Assembly (NCBI GenBank): GCA_964417635.1
Contig: CAYQIY010000011.1
Location: forward strand, 33,741-97,740
Reading direction: 5' to 3'
DNA length: 64,000 nt
Origin: an uncultured Pseudomonadota bacterium
GTDB taxonomy: Bacteria > Bacillota > Sulfobacillia > JAUYEF01
In this document: in pieces, positions 5,953 to 61,093 of the stretch
Layout of the letters: every line of letters begins with the position of its first letter
How positions within the stretch are numbered: the first letter of the stretch is position 1
Program-made: the position numbers and the translations under genes
The notes under the pieces: model-generated
Databases searched by the model: none
The model's input: only the letters and a program-made list of their open reading frames with translations
What the model was told of the DNA's origin: nothing

Positions 5953-5967
5953 CAAAGCCAACAGTGC

Positions 5968-6001
5968 GTGACAGTATGCGCCATAGCGCTTCGCTTATAA
6001 T
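5968..6001 (+). promoter_or_regulatory. Candidate spoIIG-type promoter (-35-like GTGACA, ~22 nt spacer, TATAAT)
   Basis: GTGACA ... 22 nt ... TATAAT about 85 nt upstream of spoIIGA start; unusual spacing resembles the Spo0A-dependent spoIIG promoter of B. subtilis; a TGTCGTT (0A-box-like) lies ~20 nt further upstream. Confidence 0.3.
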
Positions 6002-8650: not shown

Positions 8651-9283
8651 ATGAACTCAAGACGGCAGGCAATACTGCTGCTCGGGCTGGCCGTGGTGGT
8701 GGCGACGTGTATGGGTCTCATGCGCCCGGCTTTGGGCGCCGATTCTCACCCGCGCAACGATCTGTTGAGGCTGCACATTGTGGCGAACAGTGATTCTGAG
8801 CATGATCAACAGGTGAAACTGATGGTCAGAGATGCCATACTGAAGCACACGGCCGAAGCGTTGACCGGAGTTCGCACTGTGACAGAAGCTTTCGAGTATC
8901 TTACTGCCGAAAAAGACAACGTACGGAAAGTAGTCGAAAGCCAACTTGCTGAATGCGGTGTTTACCAGGAGTTTAGCATGCAGATCGGATGGATGAGGTT
9001 CCCTACTAGGGCATACAAAGACAAGATAGTCCCGGCAGGTGTTTACAGGGCTATACGAGTGGTGCTAGGAGATGGCGCAGGAGCCAACTGGTGGTGCGTG
9101 GTGTTTCCACCGCTCTGCCTGGGTAATACTGCAACAAAAAGCAACTCAAAGAGTGACTCGCGGCCGGAGGTAATCGATGACGAGTGCACGGAAAGACTCG
9201 AGGTAAGGCCCAAACTCGCAGTGTTGGAATGGGCCAGAGCCAAAAAAGACACGATTACGGCCATAGTGAGCCGAAAACACTAG
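8651..9283 (+). CDS. spoIIR: Stage II sporulation protein R
   Basis: ORF 8642..9283; start at Met4 after AAGGGG; signal peptide, LRLHIVANSDSEHDQQ and GANWWCVVFPPLC motifs characteristic of SpoIIR. Confidence 0.85.
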   Translation: MNSRRQAILLLGLAVVVATCMGLMRPALGADSHPRNDLLRLHIVANSDSEHDQQVKLMVRDAILKHTAEALTGVRTVTEAFEYLTAEKDNVRKVVESQLAECGVYQEFSMQIGWMRFPTRAYKDKIVPAGVYRAIRVVLGDGAGANWWCVVFPPLCLGNTATKSNSKSDSRPEVIDDECTERLEVRPKLAVLEWARAKKDTITAIVSRKH

Positions 9284-9364
9284 AATGGTTGCATAGTACG
9301 GGTTTATCTGTATCCAGCGCTCATATACTGTTGTGAGCAGGTGTGAGTGGGAGGAGGATACAGA

Positions 9365-9610
9365 TTGGCGAGGGCCTCTGATCTTGAAGCACGAGACGTC
9401 GTAAACATAGTAGACGGCAAACGACTAGGAAGCATCACCGATGTAGAATTCAGCCTCGATTCCGGGCGGATTACAGCGATTATCGTGCCCGGCTCACCCA
9501 AGATGCTGGGTCTTTTTGCGCGCGATTCTGAAGTTGTGATACCTTGGGAGAACATACGAAAGATCGGTGCTGATGTAATACTGGTCGAAGTCAAAGAATA
9601 CGGCGGATAG
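9365..9610 (+). CDS. ylmC: YlmC/YmxH family sporulation protein (PRC barrel)
   Basis: ORF 9347..9610; likely TTG start after GGGAGGAGGA; aligns with B. subtilis YmxH (..DVVNIVDGKRLG..IDL..GRI..IIVPG). Confidence 0.75.
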   Translation: MARASDLEARDVVNIVDGKRLGSITDVEFSLDSGRITAIIVPGSPKMLGLFARDSEVVIPWENIRKIGADVILVEVKEYGG

Positions 9611-9636
9611 CGATGAACTGATACGTCTCATAGAGG

Positions 9637-9668
9637 AACGCCCACGTTGTTGGGCGTATTCGTTGTGG
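9637..9668 (+). terminator. Possible weak terminator after ylmC
   Basis: ACGCCCA-cgttgt-TGGGCGT hairpin followed by ATTCGTTGTG; weak U-tract. Confidence 0.3.
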
Positions 9669-9713
9669 GTGGAGAGTTTGCAGAAGCCACAGACAGGAGA
9701 TCTGACGCATATC

Positions 9714-10496
9714 ATGTGTGCCGCTTTGCTTCGTATACCTGGTACGCCTCATGGATTCTCGGCTTTATTCACCACTCGTTCGGGTGGAGTATCAGACGGA
9801 GCCTACAAGAGCATGAACCTAGGCTTCACTGTGGATGACGACGAGCAATCTGTTCGCATTAACCGGAACAGGTTGTTCAGTACACTCGGTTGCAGACCGT
9901 CCGACGTAGTTGTCATGCAGCAGGTGCACGGCGCGGAGTGTAGACTCGTGAGTTCGATGGAGCGCTCTCTTGGGGCACTCGAGCAGCGCAGCGCATTAGC
10001 TGGTGTAGATGCGCTGACCACACGCGAGCAGCGCCTCGTGCTCATGGGGCTGTTTGCCGACTGCGTGCCGGTGTGCATATTTGACCCGGTGTCCAATGCG
10101 CTTGCGCTGTGTCATGCAAGCTGGAGAGGCACTGCTCGGCGAGTTGCACCGGCGGCGGTACGTTGTCTGGTTGAAAGCGGCAGTAAGGTGAACGATCTTA
10201 CCGCAGTGATCGGCCCGTGTATATGCCAAAGATGCTATGAAGTGGGAGATGATGTGGTAGACGCGCTCGGACTATATGATATGTCCATGCCGGGTGTGCT
10301 CGTGCCGAGTCGGCCAGGTAAGTGGTTACTCGACCTTAGAACGCTGAACAGCGCTCAACTCGCCGACTCAGGTGTGCCGATGCACAACATCAGCGTGTAC
10401 GACATGTGCACGGCCTGCAATGAGGATCTATTTTTCTCGCACAGGAGAGACGGCGCCAAGACCGGCCGAATGGCGATGGTCTGTTGGATTGAGTGA
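9714..10496 (+). CDS. pgeF: Purine nucleoside phosphorylase / laccase-domain protein PgeF (YlmD/YfiH, DUF152)
   Basis: ORF 9663..10496; start moved to Met18 by alignment with YlmD; TTRSGGVS..YKSMNLG, CHASWRG, GPCICQRCYEVG motifs. Confidence 0.8.
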   Translation: MCAALLRIPGTPHGFSALFTTRSGGVSDGAYKSMNLGFTVDDDEQSVRINRNRLFSTLGCRPSDVVVMQQVHGAECRLVSSMERSLGALEQRSALAGVDALTTREQRLVLMGLFADCVPVCIFDPVSNALALCHASWRGTARRVAPAAVRCLVESGSKVNDLTAVIGPCICQRCYEVGDDVVDALGLYDMSMPGVLVPSRPGKWLLDLRTLNSAQLADSGVPMHNISVYDMCTACNEDLFFSHRRDGAKTGRMAMVCWIE

Positions 10497-10566
10497 GGCT
10501 GTGGAGGAATAGAGATGGCTTCGAGAGAACAACCATTAGATACGACCTATGCCACGGAAGACCACT

Positions 10567-11856
10567 ATGACATCTCGTAAGACATCTGCCCCAAAGAAGC
10601 GTTCGGCTGTGAGACGGAGGAGGCCCAAGCAGAAGAAAACCGGCAGATTTAGGGTCGGATTCTTGCTGCTCATTCCGGTGCTTCTGTTTATCGCGTACTG
10701 GTGGGCCAAAGACGCGATACTGCCTGTCGTGGTGCTCTCGGCAACAGCTGAACCCGGTTATCTGGAGCGTTCTGTACACGCCAAAGCGCTTGTGGTGCGG
10801 CAGGAGACGGTGTACGTCGCGCCTGTCTCAGGCCGTCTTGTGCTCTTGGTCAACGAAGGCGAAAGAGTGCGGGCAGGCGCGTGGGTTGCCGAGATCTCGG
10901 ATCCTGCGACGCAGAAGGCTTTTGACGAGCAGATCGAAGCGTTGGACAGGCGGATCGCCGAATTCGAGCGCTCGAACGCATCAAGGATGTCTCAACTTGT
11001 ACACACGATGAAGCAGTTCGACACCAAGATTGCAGAGAGCGTGGCCGAAGCAAGAAAAGCGACATCTCTCAATGACGCAGCAAGGCTGCACGAGCTGGAC
11101 AAGATCGTCCGAGATTATCTGGATGCTAGGCTAACAGCTTCTATAGACCTTGCAAGACTCGACTCTGTACTCCAGGATTTGCTGGCAGAAAGACAGCGGC
11201 TGCTGGAGCTTTCGAAGAAAACCACAAATGTTATTGTAGCTCCGGGGCCCGGTGTAGTAAGCTTCGTGTTGGATGGGCTTGAACGCCAGTTTGCATTCGG
11301 TATGCTGGAGGGGCTCTCGGCAAGGACTGTGTTTACTGCACAGACCTCGAGTGAACAGAGTAGCACCGGCGATGAGGTGCGAGCGGGCAAACCAATACTG
11401 AAAATAATGGGGCTTGACAACGTCCAACTTGCCGTTCCGCTTAAAGCGGAAGACTTGGTAGATATGGTGGCAGTGCAGCACGTCGAAGTCAGGTCAGAAT
11501 TGTTTGGCCTAAGGGCGTATGCTGGTAAAGTGGTATCTGTTTCCGAGCCGGGAATTGACGGTTATGGCCTGGTCATGATTGGTCTCTCTTCGTTCCCTGA
11601 GGAACTGTTCAGAACGAGGGTGCTCGACGTCGAGCTTGTCAAAGACAGACGCGAGGGCATAGTACTGCCCGAAGAATGTCTTATTGAGAAGAACGGCGAG
11701 ACCGGCGTCTATGTAGTTTATAAGACCATGGCGAGCTTTCGCAAAGTCACAGTAAGGGCAAGGATAGACGGGAAGGTGGTTGTTGACGGTATATCCCCAG
11801 GGGTCGAGGTTATCAGGAATCACTGGCTGGTCAGAGAAGGATTAAAAGTACGCTAG
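10567..11856 (+). CDS. HlyD-family membrane-fusion (periplasmic adaptor-like) protein, orphan
   Basis: ORF 10549..11856; Lys/Arg-rich N-terminus, one TM helix, biotin-lipoyl-like half-motifs, long coiled coil, C-terminal beta-barrel/MP-like region (GIVLPEECLIEKNGETGVYVV); no cognate transporter gene adjacent. Confidence 0.65.
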   Translation: MTSRKTSAPKKRSAVRRRRPKQKKTGRFRVGFLLLIPVLLFIAYWWAKDAILPVVVLSATAEPGYLERSVHAKALVVRQETVYVAPVSGRLVLLVNEGERVRAGAWVAEISDPATQKAFDEQIEALDRRIAEFERSNASRMSQLVHTMKQFDTKIAESVAEARKATSLNDAARLHELDKIVRDYLDARLTASIDLARLDSVLQDLLAERQRLLELSKKTTNVIVAPGPGVVSFVLDGLERQFAFGMLEGLSARTVFTAQTSSEQSSTGDEVRAGKPILKIMGLDNVQLAVPLKAEDLVDMVAVQHVEVRSELFGLRAYAGKVVSVSEPGIDGYGLVMIGLSSFPEELFRTRVLDVELVKDRREGIVLPEECLIEKNGETGVYVVYKTMASFRKVTVRARIDGKVVVDGISPGVEVIRNHWLVREGLKVR

Positions 11857-11874
11857 ACACTACGGGGGAACACC

Positions 11875-12573
11875 ATGACACTTGAGGAACGTCTTGCATC
11901 GGTACGGCTGCGCATCGAGCGCGCCGCACAAAAGAGCGGCAGATCAGGTAGTGATGTCACGCTGGTTGCCGTAACCAAAGGGGTTAGTCTTGCCGATGTG
12001 GAAAGAGCATATCAGCTTGGGCAGAAGGATTTTGGCGAGAACCGGGTGCAGGAAGCTCGTGAGAAGATCGGCCTCTGCGACTTTGACGCGAACTGGCACA
12101 TGATAGGCCACCTGCAGACGAACAAGGCACGACACGCGTTGCAGATGTTTTCACTGATTCACTCGCTAGATAGGATCTCACTTGCCAAAGAACTGCAGAG
12201 ACAGTGCGAGCGCGAGGACAAGGTAGTTCGTACGCTGGTGCAGATCAACATAGCAGGGGAGTCAACCAAATTTGGAATCAGTCCGGAAGACGTGAGCGGT
12301 CTTGTCGAAAGAGTGAAAGCATATGACCGCATTTACATTGATGGTATCATGACCATCGCGCCTTACACGGATGATCCCGAAAGTGTGAGGCCGCATTTTG
12401 CGGAGATGGCTCGCATTCGGGACATGCTCAGCCAGAGGTCTCACGAGCGGCTGCGTATGCGCCACCTGTCGATGGGTATGAGTGGCGATTTTGAAGTGGC
12501 TATAGAAGAAGGTGCAACAATGGTCAGAATAGGCACGGCAGTCTTTGGTCCGAGGTCGGCGGCTGCGGTCTGA
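11875..12573 (+). CDS. ylmE: PLP-binding protein YggS/YlmE
   Basis: 232 aa; VTLVAVTK..., HMIGHLQTNK, SMGMSGDFEVAIEEGATMVRIG motifs of the YggS family. Confidence 0.9.
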   Translation: MTLEERLASVRLRIERAAQKSGRSGSDVTLVAVTKGVSLADVERAYQLGQKDFGENRVQEAREKIGLCDFDANWHMIGHLQTNKARHALQMFSLIHSLDRISLAKELQRQCEREDKVVRTLVQINIAGESTKFGISPEDVSGLVERVKAYDRIYIDGIMTIAPYTDDPESVRPHFAEMARIRDMLSQRSHERLRMRHLSMGMSGDFEVAIEEGATMVRIGTAVFGPRSAAAV

Positions 12574-12598
12574 GAGAGAGGTGTTCTGTTTGCAGGTG

Positions 12599-12853
12599 AT
12601 GCGTGTAATAGACGTCGCGCTTGAACTACTGCTTTGGGGGATGATCGTTCGGGCCATACTATCATGGTTTCCGGTTAGGTCACCCAGGGGTACGCTCTAC
12701 AGTGCCAGAAGGGTTCTTGAAGATCTGACAGACCCCATACTGGCTCCCATCAGGAAAGTTATACCGATTGTGGGTGGGTTGGATTTCTCGGTCTTTGTTG
12801 CGGTATTGCTGATTCAGGTTGTACGACAGTGGCTTAGGGTGCTTCCATTGTAG
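12599..12853 (+). CDS. ylmG: YggT family membrane protein (YlmG)
   Basis: ORF 12545..12853; start at Met19; small 2-TM protein with YGGT-like LSWFP motif. Confidence 0.75.
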   Translation: MRVIDVALELLLWGMIVRAILSWFPVRSPRGTLYSARRVLEDLTDPILAPIRKVIPIVGGLDFSVFVAVLLIQVVRQWLRVLPL

Positions 12854-12937
12854 TATTGCAGGAGCGGAATTCACGTTCTTCATAAGTTCAAATAGAGACC
12901 GTGAGCCCAGACGGATTCCGGTCGGGGAGGTATGTTA

Positions 12938-13405
12938 ATGCTGACTCCGCTTGATATTCATAACAAGGAGTTTAGCAAGGCCTTCAGGGGTTACAGTGAG
13001 GTAGAGGTGGACGAGTTTCTCGATGTTGTTGTGCGCAACTTCGAAGAACTGCTCCGCACGAACTCAGAGCAGAAAGCGCGTATTGAAGAGATGGAGGCCA
13101 AAGTCAACCAGTACAAGTCTTTGGAGGAGACGCTGAACAACACCCTGATAGTGGCTCAGCAGACGGCTGATGAGGTCAGGGCTAACGCAAATCGAGAAGC
13201 AGAACTGATAGTTGAGAAGGCGAAGATAGAAGCCAGCCGAATTGTTGACGAAGGCCAAGAAAGACTTGAGCAGGTGGTTCGCGAGTACGAGGATCTAAAA
13301 CGGCAGATGCAGGTCTTCAAGACGCGTATGCGCTCTCTTGTGAAATCGTATGAGCAGATGTTAGACGGCGTTGAGGAAGACTTAGAGGCTACGAAGGTAG
13401 TCTAG
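12938..13405 (+). CDS. divIVA: Cell division protein DivIVA
   Basis: ORF 12932..13405; MLTPLDIHNKEFSKAFRGY N-terminus and coiled-coil body; GGGGAGG RBS 7 nt upstream. Confidence 0.9.
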   Translation: MLTPLDIHNKEFSKAFRGYSEVEVDEFLDVVVRNFEELLRTNSEQKARIEEMEAKVNQYKSLEETLNNTLIVAQQTADEVRANANREAELIVEKAKIEASRIVDEGQERLEQVVREYEDLKRQMQVFKTRMRSLVKSYEQMLDGVEEDLEATKVV

Positions 13406-13702
13406 ATGGGCTCCAAAGCATTTGTCAGTGTAGTCGTCAAGACGCGTTCGAGAAGACCGGGAATACTCGGCTGGGTTGGAGCGTCGCTCAAAATGGGCGT
13501 CGCGTCTCCACCGGTGGACGGCAAGGCGAACTCCGAACTTGTCGGTGCGCTTTCTGACACGCTTGGTGTTCCCAGGAATGCCATAAGCATTGTGGCGGGC
13601 CAGAGTTCGTCAAAAAAACTGGTGGCCGTCTTGGGTATGGAGCCAGAAGAACTGCTTCGAAAGATAGAGGCACACACGCCGAGGCCACGCCAGTGGCCTT
13701 AA
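13406..13702 (+). CDS. DUF167 family protein (YggU-like)
   Basis: 98 aa; VDGKANSELVGALSDTLGVPRNAISIVAGQSSSKK resembles the YggU/UPF0235 family; start abuts divIVA stop. Confidence 0.7.
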   Translation: MGSKAFVSVVVKTRSRRPGILGWVGASLKMGVASPPVDGKANSELVGALSDTLGVPRNAISIVAGQSSSKKLVAVLGMEPEELLRKIEAHTPRPRQWP

Positions 13703-34250: not shown

Positions 34251-34502
34251 GTGTTGATTACCGTCCAGGTTTGCATGGGGAGCTCCTGCTATATAAGGGG
34301 TTCGGCCAAGGTGGTTGAGACGTTAAGAAGACTGATAGAGCGAAATGGTCTTCTGAACAAAGTCGTGCTGAAAGGCAGCTTCTGCATGGAGCGCTGCACG
34401 CACGGAGTCACAATCAAAATAGATGACAGCCTTTTTACAGGTGTTCACCCAGAGGACATTGAACAGCTGTTCAGTCGCGAAGTGCTCGCACGCATTTCGT
34501 GA
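34251..34502 (+). CDS. Small thioredoxin-like [2Fe-2S] ferredoxin (NuoE-like fold)
   Basis: 83 aa, four Cys (CMGSSC...CMERC); paralogous to the C-terminal domain of HydA; GTG start after AAAGGAG. Confidence 0.7.
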   Translation: MLITVQVCMGSSCYIRGSAKVVETLRRLIERNGLLNKVVLKGSFCMERCTHGVTIKIDDSLFTGVHPEDIEQLFSREVLARIS

Positions 34503-36265
34503 CCCGAATAGAGGAGGTGGCGGCTCTCGTGGGGATCATCTCGACGATAGAAGCTAGGTGCAAGGATTGCTACAAGTGCCTAAGGGCATGTCCGGTCAAG
34601 GCGATAAAATTTGTGCCGGGAGATGCATCGGGTGAATTGCACGCTCGCGTGGTCGACGATATGTGTGTGCTTTGTGGTACGTGTGTAAAAGAGTGCCCTC
34701 AAAACGCCAAGAAGGTTCGTGAAGACCTGGACGTTGTCAAGCACATGCTTGAGTCAAAGCGACCGGGCGTGCCCATCGGCGTTAGCATTGCACCGTCGTT
34801 TGTGTCGGGTATGATGCTTGAAGAGCCGCTCGGCATAGTGAGCGCACTCAAGCGACTGGGGTTCGATGTGGTAGAGGAAACCGCGATAGGTGCTGCGCTT
34901 GTGGCTAAGTTTCACTCAGAATACGAACCGGACTCACAGCCTAAAGTCATAGGTACTGCGTGTCCGGTAGTGGTGAACCTCGTAGAGAAGTACTATCCGG
35001 ACGCAATAAGCAGCATGACACCTGTCGTTTCTCCCATGATAGCGCATGCTCGCGACCTTCGCGCGCGCCACCCTGGGATTCAGGTTGTGTTCATCGGGCC
35101 TTGCTTTGCCAAGAAGAGTGAGGCAGAGGAAGCTTACGGCAGTTCTGAGGTGGCGGCGGTGTTGACGTTCGCCGAACTGGCGAAGTGGTTCGAAGAAGAG
35201 GGCATAGACCTCGAGCAGATGCAGCCAGCAGAATTCGAAGGGCCGAATCCAGGCACCGCACGCTTTTTCCCGCTAGAGGGCGGCCTGCCTCATACAGCTT
35301 CGATGGAAACCGGAGTAGGCGCAAAAACTACTCTCGCTGTATCAGGTATCGAAGAGTGCATGGATTTCCTTAAGATGGCGCAGGAAGACAACCCCCTGAT
35401 AAAAGACATCGCAGTGGCTGATCTTCTAGCATGCAGAGGCGGCTGCATAAACGGCCCGGGCATCGCGACTACTGCAGACCAGTTCACGCGAAGAGCACAC
35501 CTTGTGCAGTATGCTGCAGCGAAAAAGCGCTTGACGTGCGAGGTAGATGAACCCAGCGCCGAAGATATCGATCTCTCGCGCGCATTCTGCTCCAAACAGC
35601 CCAAACTGCGTCAGCCTACAGAACAAGAAATACGGCAGATTCTCGAGCGTACTGGCAAGATGACAGAGGCTGACGAACTGAACTGCGGTTCATGCGGATA
35701 CAGTTCGTGTAGGGCAAAAGCCATAGCGGTGTACCAAGGACTGGCTGAGATAGAGATGTGCCTTCCGTACATGCGCTCAAAGGCAGAGTCGCTCTCGAAC
35801 TCGGTTGTGGAGCATGCACCAGACGGCATCGTAGTCGTTGACAGTGCTTGCCGAATAGTCCAGGTAAACCGTTCGTTTGAACGGATGTTTGGGTCAGGTG
35901 CCAAGAACGTTTTGGGACAGCCACTTGCGAACATCATTGATTCTGAGAACTATGAGCGGGTTCTCAGTGAGCACAAGCCCATCATGGTGACATGTGCGTA
36001 TCCGAAATATGGAGTGGTGACGCTCCAGACCATATTCTATATGCCTGACCAGAGGCTCGCGGTCGGTATAATGGCCGACATCACCGAAGAAGAGAAGCGC
36101 AAAGAAGCCATGCTGAAACTCAAAGCCGCTACCATGACTCGGGCACAAGAGGTCATCAACAAGCAGATGAAGGTGGCGCAGGAAATAGCGAGCCTTCTGG
36201 GAGAGACTACCGCAGAGACCAAAGTGCTGCTTTCAAAAATCATTGAACTAAACCGCCAGGACTGA
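34499..36265 (+). CDS. hydS: Putative sensory [FeFe]-hydrogenase HydS (ferredoxin + degenerate H-cluster domain + PAS)
   Basis: N-terminal 2x[4Fe-4S] ferredoxin motifs; H-domain with altered motifs (TACPVV, GPCFAKK, LACRGGCINGPG); Cx2Cx4Cx16C motif (CGSCGYSSC...C) then PAS-like domain; start may be ~34529. Confidence 0.8.
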   Translation: MTRIEEVAALVGIISTIEARCKDCYKCLRACPVKAIKFVPGDASGELHARVVDDMCVLCGTCVKECPQNAKKVREDLDVVKHMLESKRPGVPIGVSIAPSFVSGMMLEEPLGIVSALKRLGFDVVEETAIGAALVAKFHSEYEPDSQPKVIGTACPVVVNLVEKYYPDAISSMTPVVSPMIAHARDLRARHPGIQVVFIGPCFAKKSEAEEAYGSSEVAAVLTFAELAKWFEEEGIDLEQMQPAEFEGPNPGTARFFPLEGGLPHTASMETGVGAKTTLAVSGIEECMDFLKMAQEDNPLIKDIAVADLLACRGGCINGPGIATTADQFTRRAHLVQYAAAKKRLTCEVDEPSAEDIDLSRAFCSKQPKLRQPTEQEIRQILERTGKMTEADELNCGSCGYSSCRAKAIAVYQGLAEIEMCLPYMRSKAESLSNSVVEHAPDGIVVVDSACRIVQVNRSFERMFGSGAKNVLGQPLANIIDSENYERVLSEHKPIMVTCAYPKYGVVTLQTIFYMPDQRLAVGIMADITEEEKRKEAMLKLKAATMTRAQEVINKQMKVAQEIASLLGETTAETKVLLSKIIELNRQD

Positions 36266-36272
36266 GGCCGAT

Positions 36273-37424
36273 ATGCAGCTTTTCTATGAAGTGGGATACT
36301 CGCAGCTCAACAAGAACAACGAAGAACTGTGTGGCGATAGCGTCGAAGTAACTCGCACTCGCCGCTCAACGATCGTCACGGTGTCTGACGGGCTGGGTAG
36401 CGGCGTCAAGGCTAACATTCTGTCGTCTCTGACCACCAAGATGGCAGCCACCATGCTGAAAAAAGGTTCAGCTGTGGACGAAGTGATCGAGACGCTGGTG
36501 GGTACGCTGCCCACATGTAAGGTCAGAAAGCTGGCCTACAGCACTTTCACCGTGGCAAAGTTGGATACTGACGGCAGCATCTACATAGCCGAATACGATA
36601 ACCCTCCGGTGATGTCGGGCTCAGCGCAGGCTCAGCTGGACGTAAGGTTTTGTGAGCGGGAAGTCGGCGAAAAGACGATTCGCGAGGCTCGGTTTCGGGC
36701 GAAGCCAGGAGACTGGCTCGTGATAGTGAGCGACGGCGTACTGCACGCCGGTATAGGAGGAGTCTGGAACCTCGGGTGGGGTTGGGACAGAGTATCCAGC
36801 TACGTGAGCCGACTCGCGGCGAGTGGTCTTAGCGCAGACGAACTGGCAGCAGATGTCACGTCTTTGTGCAACAGGCTCTACGGAGCAATGCCCGGGGATG
36901 ATGCCACTTGCGTGGCGATTAGAGTCAGGGAGCCGCGGCATCTCGCACTGATGGTAGGCCCACCGGCAGACCCAAAAGACGACGAGATTGCCGTGCAGCG
37001 CCTGCTCGAGTGCCCAGGCAGGAAGGTGGTCGCCGGTGGCACAACCGGGAACCTGGTAGCCCGTGCGCTAGGCAAGCCCATAACAGTCGACCTTGGTTCG
37101 TGTTACGAGGACGTGCCTCCGACAGGTGTTATCGAGGGCATCGATCTTGTGACCGAAGGTATGCTCACGCTTGTAAAGACGCTTGAACACCTGAGGAAGA
37201 ATACATCTCTGTCCCGGTTTGAAGGTAGAAGAGACGGTGCAAGCAGGCTGGCTCGCGCTTTGCTTGAAGCCGACAAGGTGCACGTAATAGTAGGACGCGC
37301 CATAAATCCGGCTCATCAGAGTCGTGATGTGCCTGCGGCACTTGCGCTAAAGAGCCAACTCATAGACGACATAATACGCGAACTACGAAAGAGGCAGAAG
37401 CGGGTGAGCGTTGAGTATCACTGA
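36273..37424 (+). CDS. SpoIIE/PP2C-family serine phosphatase with C-terminal uncharacterised domain
   Basis: 383 aa; PP2C-like N-terminal half (GDSVEV..VSDGLGSG..., VSDGVLHAG, DDATCVAI); follows hydS with 7-nt gap. Confidence 0.75.
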   Translation: MQLFYEVGYSQLNKNNEELCGDSVEVTRTRRSTIVTVSDGLGSGVKANILSSLTTKMAATMLKKGSAVDEVIETLVGTLPTCKVRKLAYSTFTVAKLDTDGSIYIAEYDNPPVMSGSAQAQLDVRFCEREVGEKTIREARFRAKPGDWLVIVSDGVLHAGIGGVWNLGWGWDRVSSYVSRLAASGLSADELAADVTSLCNRLYGAMPGDDATCVAIRVREPRHLALMVGPPADPKDDEIAVQRLLECPGRKVVAGGTTGNLVARALGKPITVDLGSCYEDVPPTGVIEGIDLVTEGMLTLVKTLEHLRKNTSLSRFEGRRDGASRLARALLEADKVHVIVGRAINPAHQSRDVPAALALKSQLIDDIIRELRKRQKRVSVEYH

Positions 37425-60317: not shown

Positions 60318-60515
60318 TGTGCAAACCTTCGGGGCTGGGTGAGAGGGCGTGCCCTCAATTCCCTACCGGCGGTGGGGCCAGGTCTGGCCGAGCCCGCGAC
60401 CCCCGTTAAGAACGGGGCTGATCCGGCGAAGAACCGGAGCCGACAGTATAGTCTGGATGGGAGAAGGTGTGTTTTGGTGTAGTTCCCCGGGGTTTCGCCC
60501 GGGTTTTTTGCTGCC
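60318..60515 (+). ncRNA. FMN riboswitch (RFN element) with terminator-type expression platform
   Basis: CTTCGGGGCTGGGTGAGAG..AATTCCCTACCGGCGGT..GCCCGCGACCC..GATCCGG..CCGGAGCCGACAGTATAGTCTGGATGGGAGAAGG matches conserved RFN blocks; followed by CCCGGGgtttcgCCCGGG hairpin + TTTTTT immediately upstream of ribU RBS. Confidence 0.8.
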
Positions 60516-60541
60516 CGGGACGAAAGAGGAGGAGTCAATTG

Positions 60542-61093
60542 GTGAAAGACAAGAGTGTTCAGATGGTGGTTCGTATCGGGTTTCTATCGGCTGTCGGGTT
60601 GGTGCTCACGTTCTTTGAGTTTCCCATTCTTCCGAGTGCTCCGTTTCTCAAGTACGACGCTTCAGAAGTGCCTGCGTTGATCGCCGCTTTCGGTATGGGG
60701 CCCTTGGCCGGTTTTCTGACGGTATTTCTTAAGAGCTTGCTTTTCCATTTCTCGGGCAAGAACATGACGGGCATAGTCGGTACGAGCGCAATGATAGTGG
60801 CGGGAACGGCGCTTGTGGTGCCGGCGGGAATAGTCTACGCAAGAATGAAGAACATTCGAGGCGCGGTGTTGGGTCTTCTCTCCGGCATAGTGGGAATAAC
60901 GGTTATAATGTTCTTTGCCAATCTGTATGTACTGCTCCCGCTTTGGGGAATACCGGAAGAGATTCGGGCGTCTCTCGTGAGAAGTGCGGTTGTGCCGTTT
61001 AACATTATCAAGGGGTTTACCAGCTCAATAGTCACCTTCCTGCTTTACAAGAGGGTCTCCTCGATAGTAAGGCTAGACAAGCCTATTGTCTAA
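60542..61093 (+). CDS. ribU: Riboflavin ECF-transporter substrate-specific (S) component RibU
   Basis: ORF 60467..61093; GTG start after AAAGAGGAGGAG; multi-TM protein aligning with B. subtilis RibU/YpaA (FEFPILP..., DASEVPALIAAFGMGPLAG); FMN riboswitch upstream. Confidence 0.8.
   Translation: MKDKSVQMVVRIGFLSAVGLVLTFFEFPILPSAPFLKYDASEVPALIAAFGMGPLAGFLTVFLKSLLFHFSGKNMTGIVGTSAMIVAGTALVVPAGIVYARMKNIRGAVLGLLSGIVGITVIMFFANLYVLLPLWGIPEEIRASLVRSAVVPFNIIKGFTSSIVTFLLYKRVSSIVRLDKPIV

Follow-up and report, generated by a model that had tools for sequence, protein, structure and literature searches.

The closest described systems are membrane-fusion protein (MFP) adaptors, whose genes lie together with those of a transporter. 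MacA of E. coli and the MacA-like protein Spr0693 of Gram-positive bacteria are encoded beside MacB-type ABC genes, and YknX is an adaptor that we take to be comparable to this type. In Gram-positive bacteria, adaptors normally pair with ABC proteins of the MacB/FtsX class. BesA of Borrelia belongs to the RND operon BesABC, and HlyD is the adaptor of type I secretion. Here we describe an MFP gene found in a 64-kb stretch of DNA (contig CAYQIY010000011.1; this whole stretch is called the window below). Unlike the genes of MacA and Spr0693, it has no linked pump, and it lies between pgeF (ylmD) and ylmE in the ylm/DCW2 cluster, among genes of cell division and sporulation.

The identity of the window protein with MacA and Spr0693 was 15-19%, and the window protein differs from both in having about 35 extra amino acids that contain an invariant DGxE motif. 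It resembles HlyD in that both adaptors have a transmembrane anchor, a tail in the cytoplasm and a long hairpin. However, the window contains neither an HlyB-like ABC gene nor a substrate gene, and the related loci contain no gene of an outer-membrane channel. That is, the window protein is not a member of the HlyD system. It also differs from BesA, because BesA lacks the hairpin and the window protein keeps a long one. Our preferred reading, to which we assign a probability of about 0.4, is that the gene encodes an MFP adaptor which is fixed in this operon and plays a role in the septal or forespore envelope with a partner encoded elsewhere, and that the coupling of its translation to a short upstream open reading frame (uORF) is specific to the lineage.

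The main evidence comes from the position of the gene in its relatives. A phmmer search of 1.8 billion representative proteins gave 614 relatives at E <= 1e-10, and synteny was compared in 13 distinct related loci with identities of 24-60% (L002, L003, L004, L006-L008 and L010-L016). The MFP gene was located directly upstream of ylmE in all 13 loci. Judged by a conserved position and by a common orientation with ylmE, yggT and divIVA in the different lineages, the gene belonged to the ylm/DCW2 cluster in 13 of the 13. The first-pass annotation of this DNA had described the adaptor gene as inserted into the ylm cluster. This description has to be changed, since the gene is rather a fixed one, kept upstream of ylmE in relatives down to 24% identity. 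The synteny in related spore-formers that had been suggested as a check was found, and it includes Natranaerobius thermophilus. The complete genome of this organism (L016, CP001034.1), in which the MFP gene occupies 1387051-1388229, shows the order murA-ftsQ-ftsA-ftsZ-spoIIGA-sigE-sigG-ylmC-pgeF-MFP-ylmE-sepF-yggT-ylmH-divIVA-ileS.

The gene on the other side, pgeF, precedes the MFP gene in eight loci (L004, L006, L008, L010, L011, L012, L015 and L016). It is absent in L002 (9849-10000) and L003 (5923-6000), and in L007 (760-1355) it looks degraded, in that 109 amino acids align and no intact open reading frame (ORF) was called. The MFP gene is intact in all three of these loci. Overlaps between neighbouring genes were also observed. 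In L004, pgeF runs 8 nucleotides into the MFP start, and the MFP gene in turn shares 4 nucleotides with ylmE; in L006, the MFP gene and ylmE have 8 nucleotides in common. Because the MFP ORF overlaps pgeF or ylmE in some genomes, we regard its membership of the operon as fixed. Thus the operon pgeF-MFP-ylmE-(sepF)-yggT-(ylmH)-divIVA contains the MFP gene as an old and fixed member in many spore-forming Clostridia-type Bacillota. The published definition of the DCW2 cluster does not contain this gene (PMC8136486).

Named members of the family come from Clostridium sp. D2Q-11/D2Q-14, Senegalia massiliensis and N. thermophilus, and the closest relatives are unclassified Bacillota metagenome-assembled genomes (MAGs). 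A scan of a genome collection with a narrower alignment gave 3 loci, the collection being one without the window's own genome, and a profile word-search with alignment A1 gave 4 proteins.

No gene for an ABC exporter, an FtsX/MacB protein, an RND pump or an MFS pump was found in the 64 kb, either by reading the ORF translations or by Pfam scans of 18 ORFs. The sole transporter part encoded in the window is the S-component of an ECF importer (60467-61093). Likewise, no efflux-type Pfam family was found near the MFP gene in the ten related loci for which Pfam gene tables were made. The earlier description of this adaptor as an orphan was therefore correct for the window, and the gene is an orphan at every related locus examined as well; the feature that is expected of a gene of the MFP superfamily, a place beside an ABC, RND or MFS transporter gene, is missing here.

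These results bear on the main rival of our reading, an ordinary adaptor with an unlinked pump. According to this explanation, the protein serves efflux or secretion together with an ABC, MFS or RND pump encoded elsewhere in the genome, and the position of its gene in the ylm cluster is meaningless. Adaptor genes normally adjoin pump genes, and none was adjacent in any of the 13 related loci. The retention of the place beside ylmE over so wide a range of identity, together with the overlaps of the ORF with its neighbours, also argues against this rival. The structure of the protein, in contrast, speaks partly in its favor, as described below. The features of the MFP gene and its product are as follows.

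10567 to 11856, forward strand: MFP (HlyD_2) gene, 429 amino acids (435 amino acids from the alternative in-frame ATG 10549)
10567 to 10731, forward strand: basic tail and anchor, with a K/R-rich disordered tail (amino acids 1-27) and a membrane helix (amino acids 28-55) in the AlphaFold2 model
10903 to 11217, forward strand: long alpha-helical hairpin, amino acids 113-167 and 171-217 in the AlphaFold2 secondary structure
11248 to 11283, forward strand: family hallmark motif PGVVSFVLDGLE, amino acids 228-239, with G229, S232, D236, G237 and E239 invariant
11392 to 11853, forward strand: beta-barrel and membrane-proximal domains, from AlphaFold2 strands, with R351, G364, P368 and G380 conserved

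In the public annotation of an identical protein (P0001), the start is ATG 10567 and the length is 429 amino acids. The N-termini of homologues, for example MTAKIPKKRIRPRRRP (MTAKIPKKR...), align with MTSRKTSAPKKRSAVRRRRP in the frame of 10567 without a gap. Since the homologue N-termini align there, 10567 is the likely start. The Pfam family HlyD_2 (PF12700) matched amino acids 21-403 with an E value of about 3.5e-40 to 3.7e-40 and a score of 138.4 bits, compared to a gathering cutoff of 25.1. Thus the HlyD-family adaptor of about 430 amino acids that had been noticed between pgeF and ylmE is confirmed.

The structure was predicted by AlphaFold2 as a single chain from an alignment of 38 sequences, and the mean pLDDT value (the confidence score of the model) was 91.3. 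The predicted layout consists of a membrane anchor, a lipoyl-like domain split by the alpha-hairpin, a beta-barrel and a membrane-proximal domain, which is the complete order of an MFP. The domain order that the first-pass annotation had proposed to confirm was therefore found by both the profile search and the model, and the model matches MexA, AcrA, MacA, EmrA and BesA. The N-terminus has no lipobox cysteine, and basic N-terminal tails occur in most, not all, of the aligned homologues. Taken together, the model shows what is predicted to be an intact, membrane-anchored protein of the MFP fold, with its bulk outside the cell.

The alpha-hairpin is about 80 A long in the model. It is poorly conserved, and a subclass of about 320 amino acids (P0159, P0168) shows a gap over the hairpin region. 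This hairpin-less subclass holds the same genomic position (L015). Because the hairpin is variable and is missing in the subclass at the same locus, it does not seem to be an essential part of the protein. Such dispensability fits a cell that has no outer-membrane channel for docking.

The hallmark motif behaves in the opposite way. Its consensus is G-V-V-S-x3-D-G-x-E in alignments covering 20-48% identity, and the residues invariant across this range are E80, G89, the five motif residues listed above, R351, G364, P368 and G380. The match to the NCBIfam model TIGR02828 begins at about amino acids 229-235, near this motif. A profile search against the PDB left the hallmark stretch unaligned to canonical MFP chains and aligned the C-terminal part with the C-terminal domains of TriA-like and MexJ MFP chains.

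TIGR02828, named 'putative membrane fusion protein', was the best NCBIfam match of the window protein, and the score was 49.2 bits, which lies below the cutoff of 154.4. Ten relatives scored 44-98 bits on this model, all below its cutoff, and it was the best-scoring family for nine of the ten. The scores on the model for RND adaptor subunits (TIGR01730) and on that for HlyD of type I secretion (TIGR01843) were 46.6 bits against 94.9 and 19.3 bits against 208.65, respectively. That is, the window protein was below the cutoff of every curated efflux-adaptor model of NCBIfam. P0064, a syntenic Clostridium-like relative, matched PF12700 over its full length (E 8e-85), and therefore the relatives at the same position fit this family from end to end. 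Judged by these profile matches, the window protein is a divergent member of PF12700, a family that is already modelled and is uncharacterised. The window protein passes the threshold of PF12700 like its syntenic relatives, and its clade is set apart by a high-GC genome, very basic tails and a cluster without sepF or ylmH. Neither the PF12700 nor the TIGR02828 model has a known function.

The complete MFP fold is what an efflux adaptor would require. In addition, the conserved residues of the beta-barrel and the membrane-proximal domain lie in the parts that contact the pump in known systems, and the N-terminus is anchored by a transmembrane helix as in the MacA, EmrA and HlyD adaptors. The public record also names the protein 'HlyD family efflux transporter periplasmic adaptor subunit'. 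However, the scores on the curated efflux-adaptor models stay far below their cutoffs, and the gene keeps its place beside ylmE with no pump gene next to it. We therefore consider an ordinary efflux or secretion adaptor to be rather unlikely, while treating it as the first rival to be weighed.

According to our preferred reading, the MFP is probably made together with the products of the division genes pgeF, ylmE, yggT and divIVA. It would then assemble outside the membrane, probably as an oligomeric adaptor, on a membrane partner encoded elsewhere. The most plausible partner in a Gram-positive cell would be an ABC complex of the MacB/FtsX type, which is favored because it is the class with which Gram-positive adaptors pair; this step is pure inference. 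The MFP would act in the septal or forespore envelope, outside any dedicated drug-efflux operon. A role in the envelope during division or sporulation fits the linkage of the gene, by the principle of guilt by association.

A bolder form of this proposal is that adaptors of the PF12700/TIGR02828 type belong, so far unnoticed, to the envelope machinery of division and sporulation in Clostridia-type Bacillota. Such an adaptor would have no dedicated efflux pump and would work, for example, as the extracytoplasmic partner of an FtsEX/MacB-type mechanotransmission complex or as a stand-alone ring. It would then be the first morphogenetic MFP, and its retention in a clade whose cluster lacks sepF and ylmH would suggest a partly compensating role. 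We regard this form as unlikely.

A stand-alone scaffold is a further possibility in another sense: the MFP might be a structural protein independent of any transporter, forming a ring or scaffold that connects the membrane with the peptidoglycan of the septum or the cortex, or that organises neighbouring products such as YggT or DivIVA. The orphan state of the gene at every locus examined and its tight linkage to division genes are consistent with this idea, and so are the dispensable hairpin of the subclass and the DGxE motif, which is invariant, specific to the family and not aligned to canonical adaptors. On the other hand, no earlier case of an MFP standing alone is known to us, and the conservation of the membrane-proximal domain points to a membrane partner. 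A purely structural role is thus improbable.

The region between pgeF and the MFP gene contains the uORF and its Shine-Dalgarno (SD) sequence.

10503 to 10509, forward strand: SD sequence GGAGGAA, serving the uORF; GGAGG (10503-10507) has a 7-nucleotide spacer to ATG 10515
10515 to 10580, forward strand: uORF of 21 codons, MASREQPLDTTYATEDHYDIS, from ATG 10515 to TAA 10578-10580

This short ORF, its upstream GGAGGAA and its overlap with the start of the adaptor gene had been pointed out in the first-pass annotation, and all three can be read directly in the sequence. The uORF overlaps the MFP start (10567) by 14 nucleotides in a different frame, and its stop codon lies 11 nucleotides past ATG 10567. 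No SD match of at least 4 nucleotides precedes 10567 or 10549, and such a match is present in 9 of 12 loci. In the window, the pattern GGAGG-N4-10-ATG occurs at 17 sites, of which 10 head ORFs of at least 119 amino acids and 7 head ORFs of 43 amino acids or fewer. The site of the uORF is the only intergenic one among these 7. Because such pairs of a signal and a short ORF occur about five other times in the window, inside genes, the GGAGG-ATG signal alone is unremarkable.

Since the MFP start has no SD sequence of its own, simple translational coupling is still plausible. That is, ribosomes loaded at the SD sequence of the uORF would terminate 11 nucleotides past ATG 10567 and then reinitiate there. 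The geometry is like that of known termination-reinitiation by overlapping ORFs, in that the upstream ORF ends 14 nucleotides inside an SD-less downstream gene. In L004, pgeF stands in the same relation to the MFP start with its overlap of 8 nucleotides, and it may play there the part of the uORF. The window differs from such systems in that its upstream ORF is a mini-ORF of 21 codons that is not conserved. Inferred from this geometry, termination-reinitiation coupling from the uORF to the MFP gene is plausible.

It had also been suggested that the uORF might encode a leader peptide, which would control the MFP gene by attenuation or ribosome stalling. The strong SD sequence, its ideal spacing and the overlap with the start of an SD-less gene are features that a leader peptide would have. 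Lack of conservation had been named beforehand as the result that would speak against this idea, and in fact the start regions inspected in 11 related loci contained no comparable uORF; in 9 of them an ordinary SD sequence precedes the in-frame start. The sole case of any short ORF among these 11 was in L003, where an unrelated ORF of 8 codons has a weak SD sequence. A metagenome scan gave one 3' fragment without the upstream region. Furthermore, the uORF region showed no RNA structure: its minimum free energy was -23.8 kcal/mol compared to a mean of -30.6 for shuffled sequences (z = +2.0, that is, less stable than the shuffles), no alternative hairpin was seen, and a search of Rfam with 9000-13600 gave no match. 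The peptide itself has no recognisable stalling or sensing features. Control by a leader peptide is therefore very improbable, and the uORF is, as far as these comparisons tell, specific to the lineage and not a conserved regulatory leader.

We also considered that the uORF is an artefact, namely that the true start of the MFP is ATG 10515 and that a frameshift in sequencing or assembly splits the two frames. The only strong SD sequence of the spacer serves ATG 10515, and L007 has an in-frame ATG with an SD sequence near the position equivalent to the uORF start; these observations are what the artefact would predict. However, identical uORF DNA is present in a separately assembled ENA contig (L001), which makes an assembly error unlikely, with the reservation that both assemblies may share a sample. 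The uORF peptide is acidic and thus unlike the basic N-termini of most homologues, the frame of 10567 needs no gap to align with homologues, and TAG 10537-10539 closes the main frame upstream. We can hardly give credit to the artefact.

The uORF shares the frame of pgeF, and a single TGA (10494-10496) parts the two; it might be the remnant of a pgeF gene that once extended further. It may also be a by-product of drift of the start region. We also weighed a programmed +1 frameshift that would join the uORF to the main frame, and dismissed it because the sequence has no slippery or prfB-like site and no fusion is needed to account for the N-termini of the homologues.

Several points weigh against our preferred reading and account for its modest probability. 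The C. difficile operon ylmD-ylmE-sepF-ylmG-ylmH-divIVA has no MFP gene (PMC13584725), so the cluster does not require the MFP in every organism. A search of the literature on the function of the family (TIGR02828, PF12700, and HlyD/MFP with sporulation or division genes) found nothing; the mention of PF12700 in the Desulfotomaculum reducens literature concerns other loci. No gene for a partner of the FtsX/MacB type was seen at any locus. In 12 loci, the regions preceding pgeF or the MFP gene showed no consistent consensus site for sigA, sigE, sigF, sigG, sigH or sigK. The comparison of the uORF covers relatives of 60% identity or less, and the basis of the proposed coupling is geometric. Above all, conserved gene order is linkage and not mechanism.

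The other genes and elements of the cluster in the window are the following.

9636 to 9657, forward strand: GC-rich hairpin after ylmC, GAACGCCCAC-N6-GTGGGCGT, a terminator-like match
9663 to 10496, forward strand: pgeF (ylmD), Pfam Cu-oxidase_4, E 6.7e-78, stop codon TGA 10494-10496
11875 to 12573, forward strand: ylmE, encoding a yggS-type protein that binds pyridoxal phosphate, Pfam Ala_racemase_N, 18 nucleotides 3' of the MFP gene
12545 to 12853, forward strand: yggT (ylmG), Pfam YGGT, E 3.7e-19
12932 to 13405, forward strand: divIVA, Pfam DivIVA, E 6.6e-47

The genes 5' of the MFP gene on the forward strand are, in order, murA, ftsQ, DUF881, sbp, ftsA, ftsZ, spoIIGA, sigE, sigG, spoIIR, ylmC (PRC barrel) and pgeF/ylmD. 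Those on its 3' side are ylmE, yggT, divIVA and DUF167, followed by lspA, rluD and the pyr operon. Between the end of pgeF (10496) and the start of ylmE (11875), there is one long ORF only on the forward strand, at 10549-11856. The true start of pgeF is probably located 3' of 9663, for example at ATG 9714. As to divIVA, 12932 is the first ATG of the ORF, and ATG 12938 has a GGAGG with a 7-nucleotide spacer (12926-12940 of the window). This signal makes 12938, rather than 12932, the probable start of divIVA.

The stem of the hairpin after ylmC (GAACGCCCAC-N4-6-GTGGGCGT) is kept in sequence in L002 (about 9905-9925), L003 (about 5965-5985) and L007 (about 720-740), and in L003 the hairpin abuts the MFP start codon. 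Its conservation is limited to the close clade, and the T-tract of the window copy is degraded. The hairpin is probably a terminator or an attenuator that would part ylmC from the transcription unit pgeF-MFP-ylmE. A scan of sigma-70 promoters and terminators gave matches at the background level only.

The window cluster from ylmE through yggT to divIVA (11875-13405) contains neither sepF nor ylmH, and when the SepF and YlmH proteins of three relatives were used as tblastn queries against the 64 kb, neither gene was found. This gap is common to the close relatives L002, L003, L004, L006, L007, L010, L011 and L012. Both genes are kept in the distant loci L013, L014 and L016 (N. thermophilus). 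The idea that the MFP replaces SepF or YlmH was rejected as a simple rule, since these three distant loci carry all three genes.

Some further observations were made on individual loci. L010 (JBLNBR010000032.1) is labelled as an Ignavibacteriales MAG; its sigG, spoIIR, ylmC, pgeF, MFP, ylmE and divIVA are 35-85% identical to those of the window, and by this resemblance it is probably a mis-binned Bacillota contig. A ribonucleotide reductase gene with insertions of an intein and a LAGLIDADG endonuclease lies at 1-2380 of L006, a few kb upstream of the cluster. In the window, 34499-36265 encodes an iron-hydrogenase-like protein with Fe-S and PAS domains, and directly after it 36273-37424 encodes a protein with a SpoIIE/PP2C-phosphatase domain. 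To judge from these domains, the gene pair (34499-37424) looks like a sensory-hydrogenase signalling pair.

The uORF has little import beyond its lineage, and serves as an example of an SD-less start that is served by a neighbouring mini-ORF. As for the protein, the name 'efflux transporter periplasmic adaptor subunit' probably gives a wrong impression of what this gene does. Should the linkage be a functional one, the family would offer an inexpensive candidate for an envelope factor that is missing from clostridial division or sporulation; it is conserved, exposed outside the cell, unstudied, and encoded in an operon with divIVA, sepF and ylmE. If this is true, the MFP scaffold would be used outside efflux.

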